Assembly (NCBI GenBank): GCA_016717115.1
Contig: JADKGE010000003.1
Span: 21,037 to 85,036 of the forward strand
Source: Actinomycetota bacterium
GTDB lineage: Bacteria; Actinomycetota; Actinomycetes; S36-B12
Length of the DNA: 64,000 bases
Direction of reading: 5' to 3'
Position 1 is the stretch's first letter. Every line of letters starts with the position of its first letter. Positions 2,068-53,589 of the stretch are shown one piece after another. Below the pieces are notes generated by a model. It worked only from the letters and a program-made list of their open reading frames with translations, made no database searches and was not told where the DNA came from. The translations under genes were made by a program, and so were the position numbers.

Positions 2068-2108
2068 CTCGTAATGCGTAGGTCCGGGGTTCAAGTCCCC
2101 GAGGCGGC
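2068..2108 (+). repeat. tRNA-Thr(CGU)-like 3-prime half, copy 1 (att-type core)
   Basis: Sequence CTCGTAATGCGTAGGTCCGGGGTTCAAGTCCCCGAGGCGGC. It reads as anticodon loop C-U-CGU-A-A, 3-prime anticodon stem TGCGT, variable AGGTC, T arm CGGGG/TTCAAGT/CCCCG and acceptor strand AGGCGGC. The 5 nt upstream (AACGG) cannot pair with TGCGT, and no GCCGCCT acceptor or D arm precedes it, so this is a fragment. Confidence 0.8.
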
Positions 2109-2119
2109 TCGGCCCGAAA

Positions 2120-2142
2120 CCCGTTGCAGCGCAACGGGTTTT
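2120..2142 (+). terminator. hairpin plus T-tract just after the tRNA-like core
   Basis: CCCGTTGC-AGC-GCAACGGG followed by TTTT. The identical hairpin follows copy 2 (36888..36906). Degenerate versions follow copies 3 and 4. Confidence 0.55.
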
Positions 2143-2143
2143 C

Positions 2144-2281
2144 GTATTTGCGAAGGAGTATTTGCGTGTCTAATATCGGTGTTATGTCCCTTTTTAGCAC
2201 TACTGCTATGCACTAGCGATGGACCGCTCGGTCCCGAACTGGGCCCCGCTATGCACTAGAACGCCATTGATTCCAGTGCAT
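2144..2281 (+). repeat. cluster of short direct/inverted repeats (arm-type recombinase site candidates) with no adjacent integrase
   Basis: GTATTTGCG x2 (2144, 2158). GCTATGCACTAG x2 exact (2205, 2248). Inverted AGTGCAT at 2275. Confidence 0.5.
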
Positions 2282-2609
2282 GCTGCACTCTGTAGTGCAA
2301 CCCGGCCGCAGCAACCGCGATCACGACTTCCTTCGGCGCGGGAGCAAGCTATCGATCAGGTCGAGTGAACGTCCTCGGTGACGGATGGCAGGTACCGCGT
2401 GCTCTCGCTTTGCCTGGACCGTGCGGAAGTCCCTCCGCTGTGGCCTGCTCGCCACCTTCGAGGCCCGCACGTTGACGACCGTGCGCAATCGTCGGCCGGG
2501 TGGCGTCCCTTCGCAGGCGTGGCCCCAGTGGGGTGAGGCCATCTCATTGCCAATGGATGGGCGCGTACCTACAGTGAGGCGAAGCCGCATCGCCCGAGGA
2601 GGTACACCG

Positions 2610-3065
2610 ATGGATCCCCGCCCTCCACTCCCTCCCTTCACCGAGGAGACCGCTCGCGCGAAGGTGCAGGCGGCCGAGAACGGCTGGAACACCCGGGACC
2701 CCGAACGCGTGGCCGCCGCCTACACCGAGGACACGGAGTGGCGGAACAGAAGTGAGCACGTCGTCGGCCGGGAGGACGTCGTCGCCTTCCTGACGCGCAA
2801 GTGGGCGAAGGAGCACGACTACGCGCTGCGCAAGAGCCTGTGGGCGTTCTCGGGCAACCGCATCGCCGTGCGCTTCCAGTACGAGTGGCACGACGACGAG
2901 GGCCAGTGGTTCCGCAGCTACGGGAACGAGCAGTGGGAGTTCGACGACCTGGGCTACATGCGTCGTCGTGAGGCCAGCATCAACGACGTCGCGATCGCGG
3001 AGTCGGACAGGCGCATCTTCGGTCCTCGTGATCCGGACGACTCGAGCGACGTACCGGTCTTCTAG
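2610..3065 (+). CDS. DUF1348 / NTF2-like (SnoaL-fold) protein
   Basis: ATG 2610 preceded by GAGGAGG (inside ORF 2385..3065). [40 protein letters not shown]...[20 protein letters not shown] matches the DUF1348 pattern I know. Confidence 0.75.
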
Positions 3066-3622
3066 CCTAGGCGCAGCAGGTCGATGACCATCGGCTGGTG
3101 CGGCCGTGCATGGTAGGTCTCCTCGAAGCCGTCCGTCGTCCACCCGAGCCGCTCGAAGAAGCGGACGTTGGCGATCTGGATGTGCGCCTTCATGATCCGA
3201 CCGCCGTGCTCGGCAGCGGTCGACACCGCCAGCCGGACGAGATCCGACCCGAGCTGGTAGACGCGGAACTCGGGCTCGACCGCGAGCCGGTCCCCCTGCC
3301 AGACGTCGCCGGTCCTGTCCAGGGGATAGAGGCGCACCGCACCGACGACGCGCGATTCCGTCGCGCCGACGAGGTGGATCGTGTCAATCCGCTCGTCGAA
3401 CTCGTCGCGGTCGGTGGCCGGGAAGATGGCCTGCTCGACGACGAACACCTGATGTCGAATGGCGAAGTGCTCGTCGAGGTCCTCCGGGGTGAGGGCAGCC
3501 CTGCACTCGGTCCGGAGGAGCGGGACATCGTCTAGGCGAGTGATGTCGGTCCTCGCCCGATGGTGACGGGAACGGCGGTCGGCGCCGGCTCGAGGGACTT
3601 CAGCCCCGAGCAGGCCTGGCAC
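3062..3622 (-). CDS. GNAT N-acetyltransferase, MSMEG_0567/Sll0786 (Nit1C) type
   Basis: [15 protein letters not shown]...VVGAVRLYP...WQGDRLAV...[14 protein letters not shown]. Lies directly downstream of the radical SAM gene. The GTG start at 3622 would overlap that gene by 91 nt, so the true start is uncertain. Confidence 0.7.
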
Positions 3623-28069: not shown

Positions 28070-28101
28070 AAATAGCCACGAATGTGTGGTAGAAAATACC
28101 T

Positions 28102-40998: not shown

Positions 40999-41966
40999 AG
41001 TTGCTGCTCGGGAGGGAGCTCGAGTCCGGCGATGGACCTGATGAGGAGGCGCGCCGCCGTACGGCCGATTTGCTCGGCCGGAGAACTGATGGTCGTGATG
41101 GCTGGGGTGGTGGCGGATGCGAAGTCCTCGGGCGTGCCGATGGAGACGATAGACAGGTCCTCGGGAATGTGGACGCCCTGCTCGATCGCTTCCTGCATCA
41201 AGCCGATCGTTGCCTCAACGTTCAGGCAGATGAGTGCGGTGCAACCAGGGGCGTCCGCCGAAAGCCGTCCCAGTGCCTCTCGCCCGGCTTCGATCGTCGA
41301 CTCGCAGTAGACGACCGCACCCGTAGTTCCCGTTGCCTCGAGTGCTGATCGGAAACCGTTCTCGGCCCGCACGGGTGCGCCAAGCTTGAGGTCGATGTTG
41401 CGCTGAGGGCCGGACAGGTAGCCGATGCGTGTGTGACCGAGACCGACGAGGTACTGGGTGGCCTTGAGCATGGCTGCTTGGAAGTCGCGGTCCGCCGCGA
41501 TCGCCGCGTCAGACTTCGCTCCGGTGCGGCCGATGAGGCCTACGGGCACGCCGGCCTTGCCGAGGGTGCGTAACCGCTCATCCTTCATGCGGACTTCCAT
41601 GAGCAGCACGCCGCCGATGAGTCCGGCTTGGAACAACGACGCCACGTCACTGACGTCGCGATCCTCTGTTGGCCACAGCAGCAGGTGGTAGCCGAGCTCA
41701 CGGGCAGCGCTTGCCGCGCCGAGAACGTACTCGAGGTCAGCATTGGAGATTCCGCGCTCTTGGCTGGGAAACAGCAGGGCGATGATCGAGCTGCTTCCAC
41801 CTGCGAGGGCCTGAGCCATCAGGTTGGGCCGGTAGTCGAGTTCGCGCATCGCCTCGAACACGCGCTCGCGTGTCGCCTGGGAGATGGTCCGCTTGCCGCT
41901 GAGGGCATACGACACGGTCGCCTCGGACACTCCTGCCCGTTGAGCGACATCCTTGCGAGTAGGCAT
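40944..41966 (-). CDS. LacI-family transcriptional regulator
   Basis: MPTRKDVAQRAGVSEATVSYALSGKRTISQATRERVFEAMRELDYRPN HTH. Periplasmic-binding-fold C-terminus. ATG 41966 lies 9 nt after GGAGG. Confidence 0.85.
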   Translation of the reverse strand: MPTRKDVAQRAGVSEATVSYALSGKRTISQATRERVFEAMRELDYRPNLMAQALAGGSSSIIALLFPSQERGISNADLEYVLGAASAARELGYHLLLWPTEDRDVSDVASLFQAGLIGGVLLMEVRMKDERLRTLGKAGVPVGLIGRTGAKSDAAIAADRDFQAAMLKATQYLVGLGHTRIGYLSGPQRNIDLKLGAPVRAENGFRSALEATGTTGAVVYCESTIEAGREALGRLSADAPGCTALICLNVEATIGLMQEAIEQGVHIPEDLSIVSIGTPEDFASATTPAITTISSPAEQIGRTAARLLIRSIAGLELPPEQQLWVGELAVRASSGPAPLP

Positions 41967-42062
41967 GCGGGACATCCTCCAAGAGGTGGGCGCGCGGACT
42001 TCCATCGACCCGCCGAAGGCCGGTCCAGGTCGCCGTGATCGTCGTTGCAGATTTGTTATGTT

Positions 42063-42088
42063 CCAGTGTTGACGCGCGTCAACACTGG
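42063..42088. promoter_or_regulatory. perfect 26-bp palindrome, LacI-type operator candidate
   Basis: CCAGTGTTGACGCGCGTCAACACTGG equals its own reverse complement. Lies in the divergent region between the LacI gene and the ABC operon. Confidence 0.7.
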
Positions 42089-42225
42089 CGTTTACCTTAT
42101 GCGAGACGTTCCCTTCTGTGCACGGAAGACGACTGTCGCCGGTTGGTCCCCACCAGGGCTGATCGGGCTCCACCAAGACAATCCAGTCGGCCCGGCGACG
42201 TGGCCACCACTACAGGAGAAGGCAC

Positions 42226-43638
42226 ATGAAGTTCAGGCACAACATGCACACGAGGGGACGGTCGACGTCCATCCTCAGCGGAGTGGCCGTTGTGGCCGTT
42301 GCCGCTTTGACGCTTACCGCCTGCGGAGGCTCGTCCAGCTCTTCGGAGTCTTCGGCCGCGGCCGGTGACAAGGCGAGCACGGCAGCGAGCGCCGCGGCGT
42401 CCGCGGCGGCCAGCGCCGCCCCCGCCGGTGAGGTCACCAAGATCACGGTGTGGGCGCAGGAGGGCCAGGAGGGAGAGGTCCAGGCGGCCAAGGACGAGGT
42501 TGCCGCGTTCAACGCTGCCAACCCGAACATCCAGGCCGAGCTGACCCTGATTCCTCAGGCGACCTACGGCCAGACGCTGGCATCGACCTACGTGGACGCC
42601 CTTCCGGATGTTTACGAGTTCGACGGCGAGACGGTCGGCGCCCTCGTGTACGCCGGCAAGGTGGCACCGCTGGAAGGCCTCGTCGATCAGTCCGTCTTCG
42701 ACAACGAACTGCCGTCCCTGGTGGCCGAGGGAACCGTCGACGGCAAGATCTACTCGGTTTCGCAGTACGACTCGGGTCTCGCGCTGTACGGCAACAAGGC
42801 CATGCTCGAGGCTGCCGGCATCACGGACATTCCCACGACCGTCGATCAGGCCTGGACCGCCGAGGAGTTCCAGACTGTCCTGGAGAAGCTCGCCAAGGTG
42901 GGCAAGGACGGCAAGGCGATCGACCTCAAGGAGCAGTACGCCGGCACGTGGCCGGGCTATGCCTTCACCCCGGTCGTGAACTCGGCCGGATTCCCGCTCA
43001 TCAAGGACGGCAAGGCTGAGGGTTCGCTCAACTCCCCCGAAGTCGCTGCGGCTCTCTCCCAGATTGCCAGCTGGCGCCAGTACGTCGATCCCAATGCCGA
43101 CGACAAGGCGTTCACCGACAAGCGCGTGGGACTGGCCTGGGTTGGCCACTGGGCATACGGCGCCAACAAGGAAGCTCTCGGTGAGGATCTCGTCGTCATC
43201 CCGCTGCCCGACTGGGGCAATGGCACGAAGAGCGGCCAGGGATCGCACAGCTGGGGCATCGGCGCCAATGCGGCCAACAAGGAGGCCGGTGGCAAGTTCC
43301 TCGACTTCATCATGCAGGACCAGTGGGTCGATCAGATCACCAAGGCCAACGGGGCTGTGCCGGCGAACAAGGCCGTCCTTGCCGCCAGCGAGCTGTACGG
43401 ACCGGGCGGCGACCTTGAGCTCTACGGCCAGCAGCTCGCGCTGACCTGCGGCTCGGCCGACCCGACACCGGAGTGCGTCACTGTGCCCCGCACGATCAGC
43501 GCCGCCTGGCCGGTCATCAACCAGAAGTTCAGCGACGCCTTCTGGGCGATCTACGGCGGCGGCGATGCACAGGCCGAGCTGGACAAGGCTGCCAAGGCGA
43601 TCGATCAGGATGCAGCCGACAACAACAACTACCAGTAG
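42226..43638 (+). CDS. sugar ABC transporter substrate-binding lipoprotein
   Basis: Signal plus lipobox VAALTLTACGGSSS. 470 aa with a family-1 solute-binding pattern. Confidence 0.8.
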   Translation: MKFRHNMHTRGRSTSILSGVAVVAVAALTLTACGGSSSSSESSAAAGDKASTAASAAASAAASAAPAGEVTKITVWAQEGQEGEVQAAKDEVAAFNAANPNIQAELTLIPQATYGQTLASTYVDALPDVYEFDGETVGALVYAGKVAPLEGLVDQSVFDNELPSLVAEGTVDGKIYSVSQYDSGLALYGNKAMLEAAGITDIPTTVDQAWTAEEFQTVLEKLAKVGKDGKAIDLKEQYAGTWPGYAFTPVVNSAGFPLIKDGKAEGSLNSPEVAAALSQIASWRQYVDPNADDKAFTDKRVGLAWVGHWAYGANKEALGEDLVVIPLPDWGNGTKSGQGSHSWGIGANAANKEAGGKFLDFIMQDQWVDQITKANGAVPANKAVLAASELYGPGGDLELYGQQLALTCGSADPTPECVTVPRTISAAWPVINQKFSDAFWAIYGGGDAQAELDKAAKAIDQDAADNNNYQ

Positions 43639-43751
43639 TACCTGACCGCACGTGGGTCATCAGGAGCGCCGGGCCAGTCGGTCTGGCCCGGCGCTCCTTC
43701 CCCCAGCACTTTGAGGTACCCAGCACTTCCGAGGCTCGAAGGAGCTAGCCG

Positions 43752-44687
43752 ATGGCAACGAATCAGCAGGTAGCCCCTGCCAAGCAGAGGTTCGGATACG
43801 ACAACACGGCAGGCTTCATGATGAGCCTGCCGGCCCTGCTTCTGCTCGCCTTGTTCGTGCTGGTCCCATTCGTGATGGCTTTCGTCCTGTCGATGCAGAA
43901 CGTGCGCCTTGATGGGGCTCGACCCAACGTATGGATGGGCTTGGAGCAGTACCGGCGGATCCTGCTGGATCCCGATACGAGCTCGGTCTTCTATCGCTCA
44001 CTTCTCAACAACTTCATCTTTGCCCTCATCGTTGTGCCGATCCAGACCGCGTTGGCCGTGGGCTTGGCCGTGATGGTGAACCAGAAGCTCAAGGGCATCG
44101 CCATCTTCCGGACCATCTTCTTCCTGCCGGTGGTGTTCCCCATGGCACTGGTGGCGACGATCTGGAGTCTCATCTTCGCCCGCGACAGTCTCGGGATGCT
44201 CAACGGATTCCTGGCGGCCGTCACGTTCGGCATGATCGGCCCGCAGGACTGGCTGGGCGACCCCAAGCTCGCACTTCTGTCCATCGCCATCATGTCCATC
44301 TGGGCCGGCGTCGGCTTCCAGATGATCATCGTGCTTGCCGGACTCCAAGGCATCCCTCAGGAACTGTACGAGGCTGCCACCCTCGACCGCGCAAACCCAT
44401 GGCAGCAGTTCTGGAACGTTACGATTTTGGGCCTGCGCAACACACTGGTCTTCGTCATCATCGTGACAACGATCTTCTCGTTCCGGCTCTTCGATCAGGT
44501 CTACATCATGACGCGAGGCGGACCGGGCGACTCCACTTCGACCGTCATGTACCAGGCCGTGACTTCAGCGTTCGTGGAGAACAACGTGGGTCGTGGTGCC
44601 GCTATGACCGTCGTCTTCGTCTTCGTCATCATCGCGATCACCCTGCTCCAGCAGCGCATCTTCCGCCAGAACAGGGAGGTCCAGTGA
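43752..44687 (+). CDS. sugar ABC transporter permease
   Basis: 311 aa, 6 TM, EAA-type loop (AATLDRANPWQQFWNVTILGLRN). Confidence 0.8.
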   Translation: MATNQQVAPAKQRFGYDNTAGFMMSLPALLLLALFVLVPFVMAFVLSMQNVRLDGARPNVWMGLEQYRRILLDPDTSSVFYRSLLNNFIFALIVVPIQTALAVGLAVMVNQKLKGIAIFRTIFFLPVVFPMALVATIWSLIFARDSLGMLNGFLAAVTFGMIGPQDWLGDPKLALLSIAIMSIWAGVGFQMIIVLAGLQGIPQELYEAATLDRANPWQQFWNVTILGLRNTLVFVIIVTTIFSFRLFDQVYIMTRGGPGDSTSTVMYQAVTSAFVENNVGRGAAMTVVFVFVIIAITLLQQRIFRQNREVQ

Positions 44688-45583
44688 CAACCGCGATCGC
44701 CGAGACTCCGACGAGTCAGGCTGCTCCGCACAAGGGCATGACCCTTCGCACGCGCAAGAACATCTCCAACGCGATCTCCTACTTCTTCCTCTGCCTGGTG
44801 TCGCCGCTGTTCCTGGCGCCCATCGCCTACATGATCATCGGCTCGTTCAAGCCGTCCGATGAGGTGCTCAACGGACTCGGCGGGTTCCTGCCGACGAACC
44901 TGTCGCTGGACAACTACAGCGGCGTCATGGGTCGGTTCGACAGCGACGCATCGGGGTACTTCTGGAACTTCTACCTGACGTCGCTGATCGTCAGCCTGGT
45001 GATCGTGATCGGCGGGCTGGTGATCAACTCGATGGCGGCGTATGCCCTCGCCCGATTGAGGTGGGTCGGGCGCAACCTCGTGCTCTCGATCATCGTGCTG
45101 CTCGTGATCCTGCCCTTCGAAGCGATCGCGGTGCCGTTGTTCTACCTGATGAACGGGATGAGGAACACGTACTACGTGCAGTTCCTGCCCTTCATCGCCA
45201 GCGCATTCTCGATCTACCTGTTCTATACGTTCTTCATCAGCATCCCCAACGAGATCCAGGAGTCCGCGCGGCTCGATGGAGCCAAGCCCTTCCGCGTGTT
45301 CATATCGATCATCGTCCCGATGTCGAAGCCGGTGTACGCGTCCGTCACGATCCTTACGTTCCTCGCGGCCTGGTCGTCGTTCCTCTTCCCAGTCATGATG
45401 ATCGACCAGCCTCGGGTCCGCCCGCTCCCGCTCGCTATCGCGGTGTTCAAGGCTCAGCCGCCGACGGACTGGGGCCAGATCTTCGCGTTCGGCGTTCTAC
45501 TGGTCATCCCGGTAGTCCTCGTCTTCCTGGTGTTCCAGCGGTGGTTCATCCAGAGCGTCGCCTCATCGGCGGTCAAGGGCTAG
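44684..45583 (+). CDS. carbohydrate ABC transporter permease
   Basis: GTG 44684 (GTGA overlap), in frame in ORF 43931..45583. ESARLDGAKPFRVFISIIVPMSKP EAA loop. Confidence 0.8.
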   Translation: MTTAIAETPTSQAAPHKGMTLRTRKNISNAISYFFLCLVSPLFLAPIAYMIIGSFKPSDEVLNGLGGFLPTNLSLDNYSGVMGRFDSDASGYFWNFYLTSLIVSLVIVIGGLVINSMAAYALARLRWVGRNLVLSIIVLLVILPFEAIAVPLFYLMNGMRNTYYVQFLPFIASAFSIYLFYTFFISIPNEIQESARLDGAKPFRVFISIIVPMSKPVYASVTILTFLAAWSSFLFPVMMIDQPRVRPLPLAIAVFKAQPPTDWGQIFAFGVLLVIPVVLVFLVFQRWFIQSVASSAVKG

Positions 45584-45585
45584 CA

Positions 45586-47265
45586 GTGTCACTTTCCACA
45601 GTCCCCAACTCCACCAGTGAGGCGGGCCCACAGGTCGATGTCGAGTCAAGCCGGGCCTGGTGGCAGCAGGCCGTCGTCTACCAGATCTATCCGAGGAGCT
45701 TCGCCGACTCCAATGCGGACGGCATAGGGGATCTGCGTGGGATCGTCAGCCGCATCGACTACCTGACCAAGCTCGGCATAGACGCGGTGTGGCTCAGCCC
45801 GTTCTACCCATCCGGCTGGGCTGATGGCGGCTACGACGTCGCGGACTATCGGAACGTCGATCCGCGATTCGGCACCCTGGAGGACTTCGATCTTCTTGTG
45901 CAGTCTCTGCACGCCGTCGGCATCCGGATCATGGTCGATCTGGTGCCCAACCATTCCTCGAGGCTCCACCCGTGGTTCGTGGAGGCACTGGCCGCGGGAC
46001 CTGGCTCACCAGAAAGGGATCGCTACATCTTCCGCGACGGTCGCGGAGTCGATGGTTCGCTGCCTCCCAACGACTGGCCCTCGCACTGGGGCCCGCAGGG
46101 GTGGACACGTGTCGAGGACGGGCAGTGGTACCTGCACTTCTTCAGCCCCGATCAACCCGACTTCAACTGGGACAACGCCGAGGTGCGTCAGGAGTTCGAG
46201 CACACGATCCGGTTCTGGGCCGATCGTGGGGTGGACGGATTCCGGGTCGACGTCGCACATGGACTGGTCAAGGACATGTCCGAGCCGTATCAGCACTTCA
46301 CGAGCTTCAGCCCGCTCCTGACCCCCACCGACGGCAGCCACCCGCTCTTCGACCGCGACGACGTTCACGAGATCTACCGCGGCTGGCGAGCCATCTTCGA
46401 GGCGTACGACCCGCCGCGGATGGCCGTGGCAGAGGCGGCTGTTCCTGCCGAGCGGATCCCGCTGTATGCCAGTTCGGATGGCCTCAATCAGGCCTTCAAC
46501 TTCGACCTGCTGTTCACGGAGTGGAGCGCTGCAGAGTTCCGCACGGCCATCTCCACCAATCTCGATATCGCTAGCAGCTCCGGGTCCCCCAGCACGTGGG
46601 TGCTGTCCAACCATGATTGCGTCCGACATGCATCCCGCTATGCGCTCCCACCGGGCACCGATCGCAACGCGTGGCTTCTCGCGAGTGGCAGGGAGCCTTC
46701 AGAGGACCGGTCCACCGGCCAGTCGCGTGCACGGGCAGCGATCATGCTGCTGCTGGCTTTGCCGGGCTCGGCCTATCTCTACCAGGGTGAGGAGCTGGGA
46801 CTCTTCGAAGTGGCGAACCTGGACGTGGCCACCCTTCTCGACCCCGTGTGGACACGAACCCTGCACACGGAGAAGGGCCGAGATGGCTGCAGAGTGCCGC
46901 TTCCCTGGCGGGCCGCGACGGACAACTTCGGGTTCAGCGCTGGAGCGAGCCCTCTCCATCAGCCCGGTTGGTTCGCAGACTTCGCAGTCGACGCTCAAGA
47001 GGCCGACCAGTCGTCGACGCTGGCCCTCTATCGTGCGGCGATCTCTCTCCGGAAGCAGCTGCAAGGGCGGGACGTCCTGGCATGGGTCGACACCGCCGAC
47101 GAGGACGTGCTGCACTTCACGCGGCCCGGAGGCTGGCAGTCCATCACCAACTTCGGTTCGTCCCCCGTCCCACTCCCGGTTGGCAAGGTCCTCCTTTCGA
47201 GCGGTCCGCTGCTCGATGGCCTGCTACCCGCCGATACCACTGCGTGGCTGACGAGTACGGCCTGA
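45586..47265 (+). CDS. GH13 alpha-glucosidase / oligo-1,6-glucosidase-like
   Basis: GTG 45586 in frame in ORF 45061..47265. WWQQAVVYQIYPRSFADSNADGIGDLRGI, DLVPNHSS, GVDGFRVDVAHGL. Confidence 0.85.
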   Translation: MSLSTVPNSTSEAGPQVDVESSRAWWQQAVVYQIYPRSFADSNADGIGDLRGIVSRIDYLTKLGIDAVWLSPFYPSGWADGGYDVADYRNVDPRFGTLEDFDLLVQSLHAVGIRIMVDLVPNHSSRLHPWFVEALAAGPGSPERDRYIFRDGRGVDGSLPPNDWPSHWGPQGWTRVEDGQWYLHFFSPDQPDFNWDNAEVRQEFEHTIRFWADRGVDGFRVDVAHGLVKDMSEPYQHFTSFSPLLTPTDGSHPLFDRDDVHEIYRGWRAIFEAYDPPRMAVAEAAVPAERIPLYASSDGLNQAFNFDLLFTEWSAAEFRTAISTNLDIASSSGSPSTWVLSNHDCVRHASRYALPPGTDRNAWLLASGREPSEDRSTGQSRARAAIMLLLALPGSAYLYQGEELGLFEVANLDVATLLDPVWTRTLHTEKGRDGCRVPLPWRAATDNFGFSAGASPLHQPGWFADFAVDAQEADQSSTLALYRAAISLRKQLQGRDVLAWVDTADEDVLHFTRPGGWQSITNFGSSPVPLPVGKVLLSSGPLLDGLLPADTTAWLTSTA

Positions 47266-47266
47266 C

Positions 47267-48277
47267 ATGACGCTGCGACTCGCCGACTCCTGGATCTGGG
47301 ACTCCTGGTACGCCTTCGATGGCGAACTGCATCACGCCTTCTACCTTCGTGCTTCCAGAGACCTCGGCGATCCGGAACTGCGCCACCGCCACCCGCACGT
47401 CGGTCACGCCACCTCGTCTGACCTTCGCAACTGGACCGTCCTGCCGGATGCGCTGTCACCGAGCGAGGAGCCGGCGTTCGACGACTGGACCACCTGGACA
47501 GGCAGCGTGGTCCGCGACGAAAGCGGCACCTGGTGGATGTTCTACACCGGCTCCACTCACTCCGACGGGGGGCTCGTCCAGCGCGTCGGAGCGGCGACGT
47601 CAGAGGACCTGATCACATGGACCAAGGCGAAGGATGTGCCCATCCTCGAGGCCGACTTCCGCTGGTACGAGGAACTCGACACCGACTTTTGGCACGACCA
47701 GGCGTGGCGAGACCCGTTCGTGTTCCAGCACAACTTCGGTATGTGGCACATGCTGGTCACCGCTCGGACAAAGACCGGGCCCACTCGCGACCGGGGTGTT
47801 CTCGGACACTGCGTCTCCCGGGACCTGCGTCACTGGACAGTGCTGGAGCCGCTCACGCCACCGGGAGCCGGATTCGGCCAGATGGAGGTCGCGCAGGTCG
47901 AGGAGGTCGACGGCACCCCGACCCTGCTCTTCTCCTGCGGAACAGCCGAACTCAGCGAAGAGGCACGCAGCCGCTACGGCTCGGGCGGAGTGTTCAGCGT
48001 CACCGGGCCCTCCACCCTGGGGCCGTTCGACATCACCACGGCGACGCGCTTCCCGACAGACTCCGTCTACGCGGGTCGCCTCGTGCAGCACAACGGGTCT
48101 TGGGGGCTCATCGGCTTCCGCAACATCGAGAACGATGAGTTCGTCGGAGAGATCACCGATCCCACGCCGGTGACCAGCATCCCGGGCCTGGGACTGATAC
48201 CGACCGACGCGTTCGGCCGAAGCCTCCGAGGAACATGGTCGCCCCAAGATCGGCATGAACGTCAAGGTCAGGCCTGA
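47267..48277 (+). CDS. five-bladed beta-propeller glycosidase, GH32/GH68-clan fructosidase-like
   Basis: WIWDSWYAF, WTGSVV, WRDPFVF (RDP motif). 336 aa with no signal peptide. Confidence 0.55.
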   Translation: MTLRLADSWIWDSWYAFDGELHHAFYLRASRDLGDPELRHRHPHVGHATSSDLRNWTVLPDALSPSEEPAFDDWTTWTGSVVRDESGTWWMFYTGSTHSDGGLVQRVGAATSEDLITWTKAKDVPILEADFRWYEELDTDFWHDQAWRDPFVFQHNFGMWHMLVTARTKTGPTRDRGVLGHCVSRDLRHWTVLEPLTPPGAGFGQMEVAQVEEVDGTPTLLFSCGTAELSEEARSRYGSGGVFSVTGPSTLGPFDITTATRFPTDSVYAGRLVQHNGSWGLIGFRNIENDEFVGEITDPTPVTSIPGLGLIPTDAFGRSLRGTWSPQDRHERQGQA

Positions 48278-48500
48278 GCGCACCTACGTCTTCGCCGCCT
48301 AAGGCGACCAGAAGCGTCTCTCGCACCTGCGCTGACTCGGAATGGCTAGGAGGAGCTGCCCGAGCGAACGAGATGGCGTTGGCTTCACACCGTGGGCAGG
48401 ATCAACAGGGTGCAGTTCCGTGCAAGTGGCACTGAACTGCACTCTGCTTGCGCTGAGTTAGTCGAGTTGGGCACGGAACGCGTAGGTCCACCTAGATGCA

Positions 48501-48548
48501 GAGTTGCGCCCTACTTGCGCTCTACTTGCGCTTAGGGGAGCGCAAGTA
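48501..48548 (+). repeat. arm-type repeat cluster inside the right end of the island
   Basis: TACTTGCGC at 48512 and 48523. Variant AGTTGCGCC at 48502. Inverted GCGCAAGTA at 48540. Same motif as at 36961-37053. Confidence 0.6.
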
Positions 48549-48629
48549 GTGACGCTGGGTAGCGCTCGGTGGCAGTGAAGCCGTTGGTATTCAACAGTTC
48601 TTAGGGGCCAGACTTGCACTCTGATTCAA

Positions 48630-48670
48630 CTCGTAATGCGTAGGTCCGGGGTTCAAATCCCCGAGGCGGC
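48630..48670 (+). repeat. tRNA-Thr(CGU)-like 3-prime half, copy 3
   Basis: CTCGTAATGCGTAGGTCCGGGGTTCAAATCCCCGAGGCGGC, 40/41 identical to copy 1, followed by CCCA. The upstream TTCAA cannot form the anticodon stem. Confidence 0.8.
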
Positions 48671-48783
48671 CCCACGTGAAAGTCGTTGCGGCGCAACGCT
48701 ATTCGCCATTCTTTCACTTTCTGGGCGCTGTCGGAATTGACCGATTTGTTGTGCCCTCGCCCTTGCTTTCGCCCTTTTCTATC

Positions 48784-50198
48784 GGTGACGTCCCCGGTGG
48801 TGGTGGGTTTTCGGCCTTGAGCGTGGCGGTGTCTGCGACGTAGTGGGCCATCGTGCAAGGGTCAGTGATGTTCGGACTAGGAACTCACGAGAGGACACCT
48901 TGCACGATGGCTATGGACCAGTCTGCCCTGTTGGAACTGCTGGAGGCGTTGAAGGCTGCCGGAGTGGATGAACGGATCCGGATCGCCGCGCAGAGCATGT
49001 ATCAGGCGTTGATCGACGCGGAGGCTGAGGGCGTGATCGGCGCGGGCTTCTGGGAACGAACGGAGGCCCGCACAGCGGTCCGGAACGGGTCGAGGCAGCG
49101 GCTGCTGTCCACGACGGCCGGGGACCTGGAGCTGCGGATCCCGAAGCTGCGGTCGGGATCGTTCTTCCCGTCGCTGCTGGAGCGCCGGCGCCGGATCGAC
49201 CAGGCGCTGTTCGCGGTGATCATGGAGGCCTACCTGCACGGCGTCTCGACGCGCAAGGTCGACGACCTGGTCAAGGCCCTCGGCGCCGACACCGGGATCT
49301 CCAAATCGGAGGTCTCGCGGATCTGCAAGGACCTCGATGAGGAGGTCGGTGCGTTCCGAGACCGGTCCCTGGCGGAGACGACGTACCCGTACGTGTTCCT
49401 CGACGCGACCTACTGCAAGGCCCGCGTGAACCACCGCGTCGTCTCGCAGGCCATCGTCGTGGCGATCGGCGTGACCGCCGACGGCAGGCGCGAGGTCCTG
49501 GGCATGGACGTCGGCGACAGCGAGGACGGCGCGTTCTGGACCGCGTTCCTGCGCGGCCTGAAGGCCCGCGGACTGACCGGCGTGCAGCTGGTCATCTCCG
49601 ACGCCCATAGCGGCCTGAAGCAAGCAATCGCAGCGGTTCTCATCGGCTCGAGCTGGCAAAGATGCCGCGTGCACTTCATGCGCAACGTCCTCGCGGTGGT
49701 GCCGAAGGGCAACGCCGAGATGGTCGCCGCGGCCATCAGGACGATCTTCGCCCAGCCCGACGCCGAGCACGTGGAGGAGCAGTTCGACGTCATCGCCGGG
49801 ATGCTCGGCCGGCAGCTGCCCAAGGTCGAGGCGATGCTCCGCGAGGCGCAGGACGACCTGCTGGCGTTCACCGGGTTCCCGCAGGTCCACTGGCGGCAGA
49901 TCTGGTCCACCAACCCGCTCGAGCGGGTGAACAAGGAGATCAAGCGCCGCACCGACGTCGTTGGCGTGTTCCCCAATCCCGAGGCGCTCCTGCGCCTCGC
50001 CGGAGCGGTCCTCGTCGAGCAGCACGACGAATGGGCCGCCGCCGATCGCCGCTACTTCAGCGAGCGATCCATGACCCTCGTCACGACCAGCAGCACCGAC
50101 AACGAGGGGCAGGTGACGACACCGGAACTCATGTCGGCATGATCAGAGAACTGACCTGAGCGCGACGAGCGAAAAGCCACCACGCCAGGGGACGTCAC
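48784..50198 (+). mobile_element. IS256-family insertion sequence, apparently intact (1415 bp)
   Basis: Terminal inverted repeats GGTGACGTCCCC... (48784) and ...GGGGACGTCACC (50198), about 26/30 matching. Flanked by the 8-bp direct repeat TTTCTATC (48776-48783 and 50199-50206). Confidence 0.85.
48907..50142 (+). CDS. IS256-family transposase
   Basis: ATG 48907 in frame in ORF 48853..50142. LRIPKLRSGSFFPSLLERRRR, VFLDATYCKARV, VISDAHSGLK, WQRCRVHFMRN, STNPLERVNKEIKRR. Confidence 0.95.
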   Translation: MAMDQSALLELLEALKAAGVDERIRIAAQSMYQALIDAEAEGVIGAGFWERTEARTAVRNGSRQRLLSTTAGDLELRIPKLRSGSFFPSLLERRRRIDQALFAVIMEAYLHGVSTRKVDDLVKALGADTGISKSEVSRICKDLDEEVGAFRDRSLAETTYPYVFLDATYCKARVNHRVVSQAIVVAIGVTADGRREVLGMDVGDSEDGAFWTAFLRGLKARGLTGVQLVISDAHSGLKQAIAAVLIGSSWQRCRVHFMRNVLAVVPKGNAEMVAAAIRTIFAQPDAEHVEEQFDVIAGMLGRQLPKVEAMLREAQDDLLAFTGFPQVHWRQIWSTNPLERVNKEIKRRTDVVGVFPNPEALLRLAGAVLVEQHDEWAAADRRYFSERSMTLVTTSSTDNEGQVTTPELMSA

Positions 50199-50353
50199 CT
50201 TTCTATCCGGCCTGGCGTGCCGTCGCCCTTTCGCTACGCGGCGTCGCATGGGGGCGTGAGAGGCGAAAGGGCGAGGTTGGGGCGAGGACGCCCTCTAAGA
50301 ATTGAGGCTGGACGTGCTCTGGTGCTGTTCAGAAGGACTGCTCCGCGATGATC

Positions 50354-50380
50354 GACCTACGCACATTTGATGCGTAGGTC
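50354..50380. repeat. anticodon-arm-like hairpin sharing the TGCGTAGGTC core
   Basis: GACCTACGCA - CATTTGA - TGCGTAGGTC: a perfect 10-bp stem with a 7-nt loop. The 3-prime arm is identical to positions 8-17 of the 41-nt repeat. Confidence 0.5.
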
Positions 50381-50572
50381 CGAGAGGTTGTTCCGATGGG
50401 CGCAGGCTCGGATGGCGTTGAGTTGCAACGGAGATTCCTGAATCGCCTCCATCTCGAATCGCTCTTCGGAGGTCTTTCGCCCTTTCCTTCGCCCTTTGAA
50501 TTGGCGGGAGCCAGGGCGGGGGTGTTCAGCCGTGCGCATGACCGGGACGCACAACTTGCTGAAGTCCCGAGC

Positions 50573-51040
50573 TCAGGGCGAGGCGGGGCCACTCGCTGGC
50601 GCTGATTCTCTTTCAGGCGACTGCCCAGGTTCGGGGCTGTGTGCGTCCGTGGCCGAGAGGTAGTCCATTCGGTATCCGTCGTCGTCCTTCTGCAGGAGCC
50701 CTTGCTCAACGAGGGCGAAGGGGTCGATCAGGAGGTCCATGCATGCGGGAAGCCCGGCGACGCCACCTCGACGAACCACCAGGACGGCGTAGGGACTGCT
50801 GTCGCTCGCGTCGTGCAGCTTCAGGGCCTACAGCCATTCGCTACGAGACAGGAGGAATGACCCGGTTGTGCTGCTCTTGACCTCAAGGGCCACCGGCTGT
50901 GGATGGCCGGTTCGATCGACGTCCAACCAGCCGAGCATGTCGAATCCGAGAGTGTCGGCGTGTTCGCTCAAGTGAAGCAGACCCCTTCCAGTATCGATTG
51001 AGGAACTCGGAGGGCGCACCTGTCGAGGCCGCCCTGGCAC
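50573..51040 (-). pseudogene. PD-(D/E)xK nuclease-like (DUF3883-type) gene interrupted by an in-frame TAG
   Basis: ORFs 50828..51040 and 50573..50779 are in the same frame. Own translation across the junction: ...VALEVKSSTTGSFLLSRSEWL*ALKLHDASDSSPYAVLVVRRGG...IDPFALVEQGLL. The E-V-K and S-x-x-E-W pattern is typical of this domain. Confidence 0.5.
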
Positions 51041-51307
51041 ACCTCCCAGGCGCGCTCGACCCCAACGCGGACGAGGAGGACCTCATCGCAGATCTGGTGT
51101 GGCCGCACTGGGAAATGCGATCAGTCCGTCACGTGATGCGGGGTGTTGGAGGGCGTGTGTAACGCCTGGGACGGTGGCGAGACTGAATCATGAAGGCGTA
51201 TCCCCGTCGGGGGCAGGATGCGCGAAACCGACCGATGGAGGAGGTCTCCGGTGACGAACGACCTGAATGGGATGGCCCCGGGCGATACGCCGGGTGGAGG
51301 CAATCGG

Positions 51308-51472
51308 ATGAGCGTGGGCAGGCGGGCGGTGCTGGCTTTCGTGGCGGTCTTCGTGGCGAACGGGCTGGGTGGCGGCGACAGGAGGACGTCTGGAGTCCTA
51401 CTCATTGGTGCGGTGGTGGTCGTGATCCTTCTCGTTGGGTCGGCGCGGTGGATCCGCGGACGCCGGACGTGA
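51308..51472 (+). CDS. 54-aa two-TM membrane protein
   Basis: ATG 51308 with GGAGG 7 nt upstream: MSVGRRAVLAFVAVFVANGLGGGDRRTSGVLLIGAVVVVILLVGSARWIRGRRT. High GC3. Confidence 0.4.
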   Translation: MSVGRRAVLAFVAVFVANGLGGGDRRTSGVLLIGAVVVVILLVGSARWIRGRRT

Positions 51473-51584
51473 TCACCACGATGGCAACTGTTGGCGCGAG
51501 GGGCTCTTGGGGCCGTTGGGATCCAGTGAGGGAGCCGGAGCGTCCGGATGACAGCCACGGACGTCCGGAACCGGAACGCACGAG

Positions 51585-52181
51585 ATGACCGATGACGACA
51601 TGGTGGTTCGTGAGCTCCTGCTGATCTGCGGGAGCCTGCGGGCGGCGTCGACCAACATGGCGATGATGCGCACCGTCCTGCAGATGCTGCCTGACGGTGT
51701 CGCGGGCACGCTCTACGAGGGGCTGGCCACCCTGCCTCACTTCGATCCCGACGACGACCACGACCCGCTCCCCGCTGCGGTCGAGTCCCTTCGGGCCTCG
51801 CTGCGCGGCGCGGACGCGATCATGTTCTGTACCCCCGAGTACGCGGGAGGTCTGCCCGGCTCGTTCAAGAACCTTCTCGACTGGACCGTGGGAGGCCAAG
51901 AGATCGAACTGCCCGTCGGGTGGATCAACGTCTCTACGGCTCCCGGGGGAGCGCAACGTGCCCACGAGTCGCTGGGTGTCGTCCTTGGCTACACCGGGGC
52001 GCAGGTCGTCGCAACGGCATGCAAACAAATCCCGGTGCGGCGGGACCTCATTGACTCCGACGGCACCATCGGTGATGAAACGATCCGGTCCGAGGTCTCA
52101 CACGTGATTGCCGAGATCCTCACCCACGTGCCTCGCCAGCATCGGACGGTGGGCGATCAAGGGGCGGGCCTGGGCGGGTGA
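51585..52181 (+). CDS. NAD(P)H-dependent FMN reductase family protein
   Basis: LLLICGSLRAASTN...ADAIMFCTPEYAGGLPGSFKNLLDW is the FMN_red pattern. Confidence 0.8.
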   Translation: MTDDDMVVRELLLICGSLRAASTNMAMMRTVLQMLPDGVAGTLYEGLATLPHFDPDDDHDPLPAAVESLRASLRGADAIMFCTPEYAGGLPGSFKNLLDWTVGGQEIELPVGWINVSTAPGGAQRAHESLGVVLGYTGAQVVATACKQIPVRRDLIDSDGTIGDETIRSEVSHVIAEILTHVPRQHRTVGDQGAGLGG

Positions 52182-52327
52182 AGGTCGCCATGTCCAGAGA
52201 TCGGCGGGTTGACAGGTTGCGGGTGCGCGGCGGCCCTGACAGTGACGACACCGGCTTCGGGCGTCCGAGGCGGGCCCGTGGACGTGTCGGAATAGACTTC
52301 GGCGGTCCTAGGCGAGGAGTTGCCCAG

Positions 52328-53017
52328 ATGAGCACGTCGTCCGCCCGGGAGCCGGTAACGGTCGAGTCCGCGCGTTCCAGAGACGCGGAACTCGTCGGCC
52401 GTTTGCGCGCAGGTGACGCCGCAGCGTTCGCGGAGATCGTGGACGACTGGTCCGCATCCATGCTTCAGCTTGCACGGACTTATGTGTCGACGCGTTCCTC
52501 GGCCGAGGAGATCGTTCAAGAATGCTGGCTCGCGGTGTTTCGGGGCCTGGACGCCTTCGAGGGCCGGTCATCCCTGCGGACGTGGACCTACCGGATTCTC
52601 ACGAACTTGGCCAAGACCCGCGGGGTAAGCGAAGCTCGCGTGCTGCCGTGGGCGCCGGGGGGCGACGACGACCCCGGACCGACGGTGGACCCGAGCCGCT
52701 TCCGCGGGGCCGGCGAGAAATGGGCGGGCGGATGGACCCCCGAGGGCGCGCCGACGTCGTGGGAGCCTTCGCCGGAGTCGGCGCTGATCGGAGCGGAGAT
52801 CCGTTCTCTGCTGTCGGCGGCGCTGTCGCTGCTGCCCGAGCGCCAGCGGCAGGTGGTCAGTCTGAGGGACATCCAGGGAATGTCGGCGGACGAGGCGGGC
52901 GCCCTCATGGGGATCAGCTCAGGCAACCAGCGGGTCCTTCTGCACCGCGGTCGGGCGCGGTTGCGTCTGGCACTGGAGGGGTACTACCGAGACATGACGA
53001 GCGAGGTGATGTCGTGA
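52328..53017 (+). CDS. ECF-type RNA polymerase sigma factor
   Basis: ATG 52328 with GAGGAG upstream (in frame in ORF 52178..53017). Region 2 EEIVQECWLAVFRGLDAFEGRSSLRTWTYRIL. Region 4 LPERQRQVVSLRDIQGMSADEAGALMGISSGNQRVLLHRGR. Confidence 0.85.
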   Translation: MSTSSAREPVTVESARSRDAELVGRLRAGDAAAFAEIVDDWSASMLQLARTYVSTRSSAEEIVQECWLAVFRGLDAFEGRSSLRTWTYRILTNLAKTRGVSEARVLPWAPGGDDDPGPTVDPSRFRGAGEKWAGGWTPEGAPTSWEPSPESALIGAEIRSLLSAALSLLPERQRQVVSLRDIQGMSADEAGALMGISSGNQRVLLHRGRARLRLALEGYYRDMTSEVMS

Positions 53018-53280
53018 TCGAGTCAAAGGCGCAGGAGCCGGATCTCGCCTGCAGGGAGTTCGTCGAGATGGTGACCGCCTACCTCGAGGGGGCGCTCGAC
53101 GAGCAGGCGTCGTTGGCGGTGCAGAGCCACCTGTCGCACTGCCCAGGCTGCGACGTCTACCTCGCGCAGATGCTCGCAACCATCGCGGCGGTCGGGCACG
53201 TACCGGTGGAGTCCTTGAGCTCGACCGCCAAGGCCGACCTCACCGCCGCGTTCCGCGACTTCCACATGCGGGCCCGGTAG
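53014..53280 (+). CDS. zf-HC2 anti-sigma factor (short, cytoplasmic)
   Basis: GTG 53014 (GTGA overlap), in frame in ORF 52522..53280. CREFVEMVTAYLEGAL...HLSHCPGC (H-x3-C-x2-C). 88 aa. Confidence 0.75.
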   Translation: MIESKAQEPDLACREFVEMVTAYLEGALDEQASLAVQSHLSHCPGCDVYLAQMLATIAAVGHVPVESLSSTAKADLTAAFRDFHMRAR

Positions 53281-53548
53281 TCGCCAGTCCGTGGCGGATC
53301 CCTGCCTGCGCTCACTCATGCGGCGCTGTTGCGTCAGGCGATCGCGGTAGTCGCCGGTTCGCCGAGGTTCCGTCAACGCCACAGTCCGCTCGTATGCGGA
53401 ATGGACGTGGCCGGCGACGAGGATGCCGTCATTCGCTGGATGCGTAGGCGCTGGCGCAGCGGGCGGACTCGCGATCGAGGTCGCGGGCGCGGGTGGGGCT
53501 GAACTGGTCGAGGGTTTTCCGTGCGATCGCTGTGTGGGCTGGGGTGGA

Positions 53549-53589
53549 CTCGCAATGCGTAGGTCCGGGGTTCAACTCCCCGAGGCGGC
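53549..53589 (+). repeat. tRNA-Thr(CGU)-like 3-prime half, copy 4
   Basis: CTCGCAATGCGTAGGTCCGGGGTTCAACTCCCCGAGGCGGC, 39/41 identical to copy 1. The upstream GTGGA cannot form the anticodon stem. Confidence 0.8.

Follow-up and report, generated by a model that had tools for sequence, protein, structure and literature searches.

How does a stretch of bacterial genome come to hold several copies of one half of a tRNA, all in the same orientation, with no tRNA among them? The question is raised by a 64-kb window (the whole stretch of DNA analyzed here, to which all coordinates refer) from an actinobacterium of the S36-B12 lineage. The initial annotation, made from the sequence alone, had noticed in it four direct copies of a 41-nt block, read them as tRNA-Thr(CGU) 3' halves, and proposed that they were left by the serial integration of islands beside an intact tRNA gene. 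We conclude that the repeats are att cores, and that they lie in a long array built by accretion of integrative elements that have tRNA-Thr(CGU) as their target and whose tyrosine integrases carry out crossover at the anticodon loop, a reading to which we assign a probability of about 85%. The way in which the array varies among strains differs from that first proposal.

Identity and boundaries of the repeat

A pattern search of the window recovered exactly four core copies, all on the + strand: copy 1 at 2068-2108 (no mismatches, T-loop TTCAAGT), copy 2 at 36836-36876 (two mismatches), copy 3 at 48630-48670 (one mismatch) and copy 4 at 53549-53589 (two mismatches, the anticodon now reading CGC). 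No match was obtained in 100 dinucleotide shuffles of the window, so that none is expected by chance. The block corresponds to positions 32-72 of tRNA-Thr(CGU) and is found as an exact match inside the intact tRNA-Thr(CGU) genes of relatives, which confirms its assignment. That none of the copies belongs to an intact tRNA also holds: ARAGORN found no tRNA in the window, searches of the window uncovered neither a tRNA 5' half, with up to seven mismatches allowed, nor additional partial core copies, and the five nucleotides 5' of copies 1 to 4 (AACGG, TTTGT, TTCAA and GTGGA, respectively) do not pair with TGCGT.

In contrast to the initial view, the repeat does not end at the last acceptor nucleotide. 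A hairpin 3' of the acceptor end is also common to the copies, and over an extended repeat of 82 nt copy 1 shows 93% identity to copy 2, with values of 79% for copy 3 and 65% for copy 4. The stability of this hairpin declines from -22.3 kcal/mol at the live tRNA end of a metagenome contig (L001) to between -18.2 and -7.2 kcal/mol from copy 1 to copy 4. As for the short blocks said to be shared about 90 nt upstream of copies 1-3, one such block, AAGCCGTTGGTA, is indeed present, but it lies 52 nt 5' of the core and is exact in copies 2 and 3 only. Beyond the window, 124 core matches in 118 genome blocks comprise 78 intact tRNA-Thr genes and 46 orphan halves; several of these halves display the same types of P arm as copies 1-3, and the arm families recur in many metagenome-assembled genomes of Actinomycetota.

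Attachment-site arms around the cores

Under the favored reading, the core would be the portion common to attP and the tRNA gene, tRNA positions 32-72. Each copy would be preceded by the P arm of the element to its left and followed by the P' arm of the element to its right, with the P' arm providing a replacement tRNA 3' half and a terminator hairpin. All arms described here are on the + strand. Left of copy 1, the island that ends there has a P arm of what we call the X type (1947-2067), with ATGCCCCGG twice (1963 and 1974) and a 3' end reading GACCCTAGAGGGGCAGCGAACGG. Sequence immediately 5' of orphan cores in other metagenome-assembled genomes matches it at 74-90% identity in eight blocks (L028, L035, L055, L074, L091, L096, L098 and L110), and a strain variant (L127) lacks exactly the 1947-2067 interval. 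Right of copy 1, segment A begins with a P' arm (2109-2175) that has a terminator-like hairpin at 2116-2142 (folding energy -18.2 kcal/mol) and GTATTTGCG twice (2144 and 2158); over the 82-nt repeat it shows 93% identity with its counterpart in element B. The right end of segment A bears a P arm of the copy-2 type (36653-36835), with CTGGAGTGG twice (36751 and 36761), AAGCCGTTGGTA at 36784 and the 3' end TTCCCTCATGACCGTGGGGCTGGAGATTTGT; it is homologous to sequence upstream of orphan cores in L033, L036, L055, L097 and L111.

Between copies 2 and 3, element B is bounded by a P' arm (36877-37060; hairpin 36884-36910, five ACTTGCGC arm-type sites), homologous to the sequence that follows the intact tRNA in L001, and by a P arm (48440-48629; three ACTTGCGC sites at 48513-48547, AAGCCGTTGGTA at 48578, 3' end ACTTGCACTCTGATTCAA) with about 80% identity to the attR P arm of L001 and to L111. 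The window has 11 ACTTGCGC motifs, of which nine sit in the two ends of element B or upstream of xis. Segment C starts with a P' arm (48671-48714; hairpin 48678-48704) about 84% identical to the P' arms of strain variant L129. After copy 4, the left end of the next segment has an X-type P' arm (53590-53743; ATGCCCCGG at 53679) with a decayed hairpin that now folds poorly. This arm is homologous to core-downstream sequence in L023, L035 and L091, and in the latter two, X-type P' and P arms pair around elements of 1.7 and about 3.8 kb. The placement of the window inside a tandem array is supported.

A complete integrative element

Element B, the 11.8-kb segment at 36877-48629, is complete: it encodes a tyrosine integrase and an excisionase, and ACTTGCGC arm sites lie at each of its ends. 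The integrase (475 aa; 37550-38977, - strand) matches PF00589 with E=1.6e-4, a value under the gathering score; its homologues carry PF00589, and R232, K292, K384xxR387, H410 and Y420 are invariant across 18 members of the integrase family. A comparison with solved structures returned no matches. The excisionase is of the HTH_17 type (74 aa; 39094-39315, - strand; weak match to TIGR01764) and shows 97% identity to the xis of L001, and the identical gene in contig L005 matches HTH_17. Between the att site and int lies a small acidic ORF (110 aa; 37118-37450, - strand) with a weak Ank_2 match only, in the position occupied by a Fic gene in L001. Pfam searches of the cargo (39766-48277) identified a major-facilitator transporter, a LacI regulator, sugar ABC-transporter genes, an alpha-amylase-family enzyme and a GH32 enzyme, and no replication or transfer genes. 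In L001 an integrase 89% identical to that of element B adjoins an intact tRNA-Thr(CGU), and a 41-nt orphan copy is situated 7.6 kb from this tRNA, with P and P' arms homologous to those of element B. The anatomy of element B and this relative residing in an intact tRNA gene together support both the reality of the element and the interpretation of the repeats as att cores of anticodon-loop-type tyrosine-integrase elements.

Segments lacking an integrase

No integrase was detected by tblastn in segment C or in A1, the left part of segment A. Segment C consists of an IS256-family insertion sequence (48784-50199, + strand; Mutator transposase at 48853-50142, PF00872 E=2e-136; 30-bp inverted repeats), with a read depth 5-20x that of its neighbours in sequencing runs, followed by genes for an FMN reductase, an ECF sigma factor and a zf-HC2 anti-sigma factor (50200-53548; Pfam). 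Segment A was initially regarded as a 34.8-kb island that has Nit1C, nitrile hydratase and nar genes as cargo and lacks an integrase, and indeed none was found. According to Pfam, part A1 (2176-25300) encodes DUF1348, GNAT and radical SAM proteins, an AIR-synthase-like protein, a GT4 glycosyltransferase, AA-kinase/AllF-G-H-like proteins, ComA, lyases, a NicO transporter, and the beta and alpha subunits and activator of nitrile hydratase, whereas part A2 (25320-36652) encodes two NarK-like major-facilitator transporters, narGHJI and moeA. At the right end of A1, positions 24925-25230 share 88% identity with the sequence immediately interior to a B-type P arm in L111. A2 is 92-95% identical to contigs L079 and L033 of a related metagenome-assembled genome, bin-560, with homology beginning at 25320. 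The order in bin-560 is intact tRNA, P' hairpin, different cargo, nar and moeA, the same P arm and a core, with the intact tRNA-Thr lying 6.2 kb 5' of the narK homologue and aromatic-degradation genes between them. Since these genes stand in place of Nit1C and nitrile hydratase, the 34.8-kb segment is, judged from sequence comparison, a composite with a break at about 25.23-25.32 kb, and it may never have been one single mobile unit. The arm repeats at its two ends differ from each other, and its G+C content is not distinctive. Thus, the description as an island stands insofar as att arms flank a segment that is accessory and varies among strains and relatives, but not as regards a unitary origin.

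Strain variation at an internal junction

Contigs with 99.1-99.9% identity to positions 1-2110 of the window continue after the core into at least five different islands: segment A (L128, L132 and L133), an island with an integrase and xis (L130), one with a RelA_SpoT gene (L131), one with a TetR gene and then a further core (L129), and an element exceeding 19 kb that carries an MmeI-type restriction-modification system and a TrwC relaxase (L127, L135 and L162). It is at copy 1, or immediately beyond it, that the nearly identical left flanks diverge. In the T loop of this copy, one base is G in all contigs that carry segment A and A in all others; this SNP within the core travels with the right-hand partner, which places the crossover at the 5' end of the core. 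In three runs the read depth of the left flank exceeds that of the left end of segment A, and in a fourth the latter is absent and an X-type P' arm follows copy 1. The initial annotation had held that an array without polymorphism among relatives would tell against it, and what was found at copy 1 is strong strain-level polymorphism. The copy 2 junction is the same in Logan contig L005 and in four sequencing runs, and the junctions of copies 2 and 4 are identical in four unrelated runs, so that much of the array is stable.

Such changes at a junction within the array are not what plain serial insertion beside an intact gene would produce; they point to orphan cores as sites of insertion or deletion. 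Integrases would reshuffle the array by inserting elements into such cores or deleting between them. The segments lacking an integrase (A1 with Nit1C and nitrile hydratase, A2 with nar and moeA, C, and the islands to the left and right) resemble cis-mobilizable elements, and would have either lost their recombination modules or been moved in trans. An intact tRNA gene would lie further left on the same replicon. It was, however, not found where first predicted: a strain-variant contig with a 99.8% identical left flank contains, within 56.7 kb left of copy 1, no intact tRNA-Thr and two further core remnants. The leftmost of these is a piece of 28 nt that comprises T arm and acceptor and lies 27.5 kb from copy 1, and the 29 kb beyond it has neither a core nor a tRNA.

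Alternative explanations

This arrangement might suggest a former hotspot whose left end has been cut off, with the functional tRNA-Thr(CGU) now at a separate locus. Such a detachment would agree with the short remnant and the 29 kb without core or tRNA after it, as well as with contigs from the same run that carry the native tRNA upstream region and 5' half at the organism's depth and that could not be linked to the array. However, a first island of more than 29 kb is plausible, since the relaxase element exceeding 19 kb occurs at copy 1 in one variant; a T-arm-type fragment is the expected attR leftover of a T-loop class integrase; and the nar module of the close relative bin-560 has kept its connection to an intact tRNA. 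We regard detachment as unlikely. It is also unlikely that the copies are inert relics of old, classical serial insertion beside an intact tRNA, with nothing mobile now and the differences between contigs reflecting old divergence or ordinary deletions. Left flanks of 99.8% identity stop, to the base, at the core and then give way to unrelated islands, an integrase or a relaxase being present in two of them, and the excess depth of the left flank over segment A is seen within single samples. Further, the int, xis and arm sites of element B are intact and the element is 99.9% identical between samples. These features have to be set against the constancy of the copy 2 and copy 4 junctions in runs from different studies, the decayed hairpins and anticodon of copies 3 and 4, the lack of an integrase in most segments, and the absence from Logan contigs of an excision circle or a clean empty-site joint for element B (two variant joints in these contigs have different spacer letters and hence derive from other strains or loci).

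A very improbable alternative treats the repeat not as an att scar but as an autonomous repeated element that spreads through a mechanism of its own, for example a tRNA-derived miniature element or a gene for a small structured RNA. The inclusion in the repeat of a conserved hairpin past the tRNA end, the abundance of orphan copies across Actinomycetota, and a conserved 23-nt T-loop replacement in some copies from other genomes could be read in this way. Yet in every copy identity begins exactly where the anticodon loop does, as in the attL/attR duplication of L001, and all copies have a single orientation. Moreover, the flanks can be grouped into families of P and P' arms, which occur as pairs on either side of islands; these P' arms are also found after intact tRNA genes, and an integrase with arm sites is present at the expected place.

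Relation to known systems

Cis-mobilizable elements, known from site-specific accretion, are integrase-less segments with att sites related to those of an integrase-bearing tandem neighbour. The integrase-less segments observed here are similarly in tandem with an integrase-bearing element and have related att sites, a likeness that would predict joint or trans excision. A difference is that the arms fall into several distinct families, and hence one integrase may not serve all segments. AICEs are actinobacterial elements with int and xis adjoining a tRNA gene; pSE101 uses a tRNA-Thr gene, and a tandem pair with a 44-bp att site between its members is known. Element B is likewise actinobacterial, with int, xis and a tRNA-Thr target, but its cargo is solely sugar-catabolic, and as Pfam detected no replication or FtsK-like transfer genes it was ruled out as an AICE.

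Islander (Hudson, Lau and Williams; PMC4383910), which maps tandem genomic islands at tRNA or tmRNA genes, recorded only four arrays of at least three members among 3919 islands, an integrase being required for each member. As in those islands, the tyrosine integrase adjoins the target gene with the displaced 3' tDNA fragment at the far end, the crossover is centred on the anticodon, and arrays arise from several elements at one tRNA gene; in contrast, one of at least five window segments has an integrase here, and there are more cores, four in the window and two to the left in the strain-variant contig. The ssrA genomic-island arrays of Dehalococcoides (McMurdie et al. 2011; PMC3146451) also have numerous direct repeats within about 100 kb, derived from the 3' end of a single small-RNA gene, respiratory or catabolic cargo in tandem islands, strain-to-strain differences in content, and members without an integration module, which were read by their authors as cis-mobilizable. 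They differ in having a tmRNA target, a 20-bp repeat and a serine recombinase, as against tRNA-Thr(CGU), a 41-nt core, and a tyrosine recombinase with an excisionase. In the tycheposons of Prochlorococcus (10.1101/2020.12.28.424599), incoming elements push older ones deeper into a tRNA-anchored island. Shared with these are tyrosine-recombinase elements at tRNA genes, nutrient-acquisition cargo, degenerate remnants and extra partial tRNAs across the island, and heterogeneous populations; the present case belongs to another phylum and integrase family, shows no replication module, and varies at a junction inside the array whose left neighbour is conserved.

Both tandem accretion and integrase-less cis-mobilizable elements are thus known phenomena, and it is the scale that is unusually large here. 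This wastewater actinobacterium has a very long, strain-variable stack of islands, one of which still has its integrase, and it represents a large case of a well-known process.

The repeated tRNA-Thr halves and their limits

A pattern search of the window with the 41-mer CTCGTAATGCGTAGGTCCGGGGTTCAAGTCCCCGAGGCGGC recovers four plus-strand matches, at 2068, 36836, 48630 and 53549 (copies 1 to 4, with 0, 2, 1 and 2 mismatches, respectively), and 100 shuffles searched with the same 41-mer gave zero matches. Comparison with the intact genes in three contigs from other genomes or metagenomes (L001, L079 and L139) identifies the copies as positions 32-72 of tRNA-Thr(CGU). ARAGORN predicts no tRNA in the window, and a search of the window for the 5' half, allowing up to seven mismatches, recovered neither this half nor further partial copies of the repeat. 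Pattern search, ARAGORN and 5'-half search thus agree with the initial annotation, which had described four same-strand tRNA-Thr(CGU) 3' halves, none of them belonging to an intact tRNA in the window. The repeat extends from the anticodon loop to the acceptor end, limits identical to those of the attL/attR duplication in L001, a JGI contig with a B-like element, and all copies of the 3' part have the extent that defines anticodon-loop-type att repeats of tyrosine-integrase islands. We also considered that the copies might be parts of a tRNA split by a group-I intron or of a tmRNA; both readings were dropped, as the copies hold the whole anticodon loop, the 5' half is absent and ARAGORN is negative.

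Beyond the acceptor end the repeat runs on for about 40 nt, into a hairpin (GAAACCCGTTGC-AGC-GCAACGGGTTTC) of the P' arm, the stretch right of the 41-nt att block (core) with which the right-hand element starts. Over these 82 nt the identity to copy 1 is 93% for copy 2, 79% for copy 3 and 65% for copy 4, and the stability of the hairpin is -22.3 kcal/mol beside the live gene in L001 and -18.2, -17.1, -12.7 and -7.2 kcal/mol at copies 1, 2, 3 and 4. The hairpin has the look of a terminator, brought in by the element for the regenerated tRNA.

A complete integrative element between copies 2 and 3

Element B (36877-48629) is a complete integrative element. Its P' arm, directly right of copy 2, contains the hairpin along with five ACTTGCGC sites. 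After an ORF for an acidic protein of 110 aa comes the minus-strand gene of a 475-aa integrase (37550-38977), which is 674 nt from copy 2 on the attL side; next to the integrase is a 74-aa excisionase (xis; 39094-39315), and just left of copy 3 is the P arm, the end of the element, with three ACTTGCGC sites. Nine of the 11 copies of ACTTGCGC in the window fall within the two ends of B or upstream of xis. An integrase beside the core on the attL side is seen in B alone, and not in the segments that follow copies 1, 3 and 4. Among tyrosine recombinases the integrase is divergent; its Pfam match falls short of the gathering score, though a match is recorded for its homologues, and a sequence search against solved structures returned no match. 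Its residues R232, K292, K384xxR387, H410 and Y420 are invariant across 18 homologues and supply the catalytic set of tyrosine recombinases (R-K-H-R-H/W-Y), with Lys384 in place of the first His of HxxR. Proteins of this family have an invariant Lys where the HxxR box starts with His and are unusually long (~470 aa).

By Pfam, the cargo of B is devoted to sugar uptake and hydrolysis (a major-facilitator transporter, LacI, an ABC transporter, an alpha-amylase-family enzyme and a GH32 enzyme); no replication genes or FtsK/Tra-type transfer modules were detected by Pfam among its genes, and a megablast of the integrase region against plasmids gave no match. In L001, an integrase and an excisionase 89% and 97% identical to those of B adjoin an intact tRNA-Thr(CGU), which is followed by the same hairpin as in the window and by similar arm sites, and a 41-nt orphan copy (a core without the 5' tRNA half) lies 7.6 kb from the tRNA; the P arm in front of this copy is homologous to that left of copy 3. 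This arrangement establishes the identity of the repeats and the limits of the crossover unit.

Neither circle joints nor a clean excision or empty-site joint for B were seen in the Logan contigs, which are assembled from sequencing runs, of four runs. Two joints that are present in the runs, a back-joint (48672>36885) and a skip (48670>53605), were rejected as excision products, as their spacer letters differ. At a distance of 114 nt past copy 3 lies an insertion sequence of the IS256 family (48784-50199), whose inverted repeats measure 30 bp; its depth in metagenome runs is 5-20x that of its neighbours, and it is therefore multicopy or common to several organisms.

Integrase-less segments and the composite nature of segment A

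Segment A, between copies 1 and 2, encodes, according to Pfam, radical SAM, GNAT, AIR-synthase-like, GT4, AllF/G/H-like, ComA, lyase and NicO proteins in its first part, and onward the nitrile hydratase beta, alpha and activator proteins, followed by two NarK-like transporters, NarGHJI and MoeA. Gene checks including Pfam found no integrase in segment A, in keeping with what had been noted earlier for 2.1-36.8 kb, or in segment C, between copies 3 and 4. These two segments and an X-type element (X type being one of the arm families) in contig L035 are att-flanked and integrase-less, as cis-mobilizable elements are. The P' arm of A is 93% identical to that of B over 82 nt, and the P arms of both have AAGCCGTTGGTA in common, in each case 52 nt from the core; their arm-type repeats differ, with GTATTTGCG and CTGGAGTGG in A versus ACTTGCGC in B. 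Apart from these repeats, A and B display the related att arms of neighbours in cis-mobilizable or accretion arrays.

We read segment A as a composite, in which A1 (2176-25300), with Nit1C, nitrile hydratase and a B-like left end, has been fused to A2 (25320-36652), with nar and moeA. This reading draws on the following observations. The left and right ends of A bear unlike arm repeats. In bin-560, a related genome assembled from a metagenome, an intact tRNA-Thr and P' hairpin are followed by aromatic-ring hydroxylase and meta-cleavage genes and then by a nar module, whose homology to the window begins exactly at 25320 (92% identity). Window 24925-25230, in turn, is 88% identical to a stretch just inside the B-type P arm of contig L111. 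The moeA end is found, at 95% identity, on a second bin-560 contig, together with a P arm of matching type and a core. We infer that an internal att junction of A was lost near 25.23-25.32 kb. The 90-nt gap between the end of the L111 homology and the start of the bin-560 homology (25231-25320) contains GACTGATTCCAAC, which resembles the final bases of the B-type P arm (CTCTGATTCAA followed by C), and on this sequence likeness may be what remains of the lost junction. Of the initial proposal that the Nit1C/nitrile hydratase and nar genes are cargo of one 34.8-kb island, the accessory, att-flanked location is upheld, but the single unit is not.

Past copy 4, near 59.5 kb, tandem 33-nt repeats (TCCGACG...CATCATCGCG; 59538-59685) occur in overlapping ORFs beside an ECF sigma/anti-sigma pair.

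Alternative partners at copy 1

Relatives of the left flank of copy 1 were collected through exact matches to the SHOCT protein whose gene is immediately left of this copy. Contigs that are 99.1-99.9% identical to window 1-2110 enter unrelated DNA after the core, and five alternative partners are found at copy 1: segment A itself (L128, L132, L133); an island with xis and a 441-aa integrase 38% identical to that of B (L130); a RelA_SpoT island (L131); a 4-kb TetR island, after which comes another core (L129); and an element longer than 19 kb that encodes an MmeI-type restriction-modification system, a TrwC relaxase and a TIR-domain protein (L127, L135, L162). In L127, the X-type P arm (precisely 1947-2067) is missing as well. 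At the variable T-loop position of copy 1, all contigs with segment A have the base G and all others the base A; this base thus tracks the right-hand partner, which indicates that most of the core moves with the right-hand element. Such movement is expected of strand exchange within the anticodon loop, where the core has its 5' end.

Depths taken as flat whole-contig means from Logan contigs, which allow a rough comparison of the left flank with the left end of A, point the same way: 27.8 versus 22.2 falling to 17.5 in run X1, 9-12 versus 6.0 in X3, 21.7 versus 12.8 in X6 and 15.5 versus 0 in X8, in which copy 1 continues into an X-type P' arm and not into A. The junctions at copies 2 and 4, on the other hand, do not vary among four runs. 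Bin-560 differs from the window in A1 and in the DNA past copy 2. Together with the five partners at copy 1, these differences constitute the presence/absence polymorphism for which the initial annotation had proposed a comparison with relatives.

DNA left of the window and the intact tRNA

A leftward walk was made on a long-read contig of a strain variant, which matches the window in its flank at 99.8% identity, and no intact tRNA-Thr was found on it within 56.7 kb left of copy 1. At 22.7 kb from copy 1 there is a full 41-nt core between X-type arms, so the left neighbour is a 22.7-kb X-type island without integrase; a 28-nt T-arm and acceptor fragment follows at 27.5 kb, and the further 29 kb to the left contain no core and no tRNA. 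The fragment at 27.5 kb (L140 1599-1639) has the T arm and acceptor only, then a different hairpin-type arm, and falls inside a called 269-aa ORF; it is the type of scar expected from a T-loop-class integrase. Pairs of DUF6325 and SHOCT genes (window 1148-1881, L140 9324-10727, L141 3531-3995) are repeated several times in the islands left of the window, often with DUF2252, SulP transporter and rhodanese genes.

An intact tRNA-Thr gene probably exists in the organism, since the tRNA 5' half and its native upstream region are present in run X1 on two short contigs that stop at the core and have the organism's depth (~17); a linkage of this gene to the array is putative. A search of metagenome contigs with the META-domain protein that L001 encodes upstream of its tRNA yielded a single contig, from the species of L001 and not that of the window, and a homologue of this protein, P0024, comes from yet another species, its contigs stopping at the tRNA core.

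Recurrence of cores and arms in other genomes

A genome scan with the 41-mer gave at least 118 blocks of 8 kb, mostly from metagenome-assembled Actinomycetota, with the window's own genome not among them. Among the matches listed, intact tRNA-Thr genes account for 78 of 124 hits and orphan halves for the other 46, and the sequences upstream of the orphans form recurring families, three of which match copies 1, 2 and 3. The X type is represented in the window by both of its arms, the P arm left of copy 1 (~1947-2067) and the P' arm right of copy 4 (53590-53743). In L035, X-type arms enclose a 1.7-kb integrase-less unit, in whose ORF translations a HigBA-like toxin-antitoxin pair and a SnoaL-like protein are recognizable; in L091 they enclose a unit of ~3.8 kb.

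Several orphan cores (L033 339-395, L044, L050 with two copies, L076, L096 and L110) have the 7-nt T-loop swapped for a conserved 23-24-nt insert, TGGGGAGGAGCGCAGCGACGGTT. Among them is the homologue of window copy 2 in bin-560, and the insert is absent from all four window copies; a similar motif, GGGAGGAGC.CAG, also follows intact tRNA-Thr genes of L060 and L072. L139 (5482-5620) and L001 (12700-12944) have a 100% identical upstream META protein and differ in what follows the intact tRNA-Thr, namely a GTGAAGTCCCGGGACATC-type P' arm in the former and a B-like island in the latter, so the tRNA-Thr hotspot is polymorphic in that species too. In L107 and L112, labelled Gammaproteobacteria and Rubrivirga, an actinobacterial core follows a partial 5' part (..GAGCAACGCA), which could reflect mis-binning or cross-phylum transfer.

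Possible mobilization in trans and its significance

We tentatively propose, at a probability of a little over one in three, that the orphan tRNA-Thr 3' halves are live recombination sites, and that integrase-less modules with conserved P and P' arms are inserted, deleted and exchanged at the internal junctions by a few integrases supplied in trans. The locus would then serve as a large cassette platform. Example cassettes would be the X-type units, which range from the 1.7-kb toxin-antitoxin cassette to the 22.7-kb island and recur across many Actinomycetota.

The array matches the overall picture of the tandem islands mapped by Islander (PMC4383910), and is like the ssrA arrays of Dehalococcoides with their putative cis-mobilizable members (PMC3146451) and the tycheposon islands (10.1101/2020.12.28.424599). 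It is also like tandem AICEs, among which pSE101 uses a tRNA-Thr gene; however, the replication and FtsK/Tra-type transfer modules that AICEs possess besides int and xis are absent from element B. The locus thus belongs to a kind of system that is already known, of which it is a large example that varies between strains and comes from a new lineage. Work on such elements in Actinomycetota has centred on AICEs. The present locus is among the larger tRNA-anchored arrays and consists mostly of integrase-less modules with several recurring arm families, which makes it a natural test system for trans-mobilization and accretion in Actinomycetota. Annotators should be warned that island finders demanding one integrase per island would overlook most of this array.

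For this abundant uncultured wastewater actinobacterium, nitrate respiration, nitrile hydratase with Nit1C and sugar catabolism lie in a strain-variable, att-bounded accessory region, and hence these traits cannot be assumed species-wide. If the orphan cores are indeed live, nitrate respiration and nitrile metabolism would be shuffled among wastewater strains.
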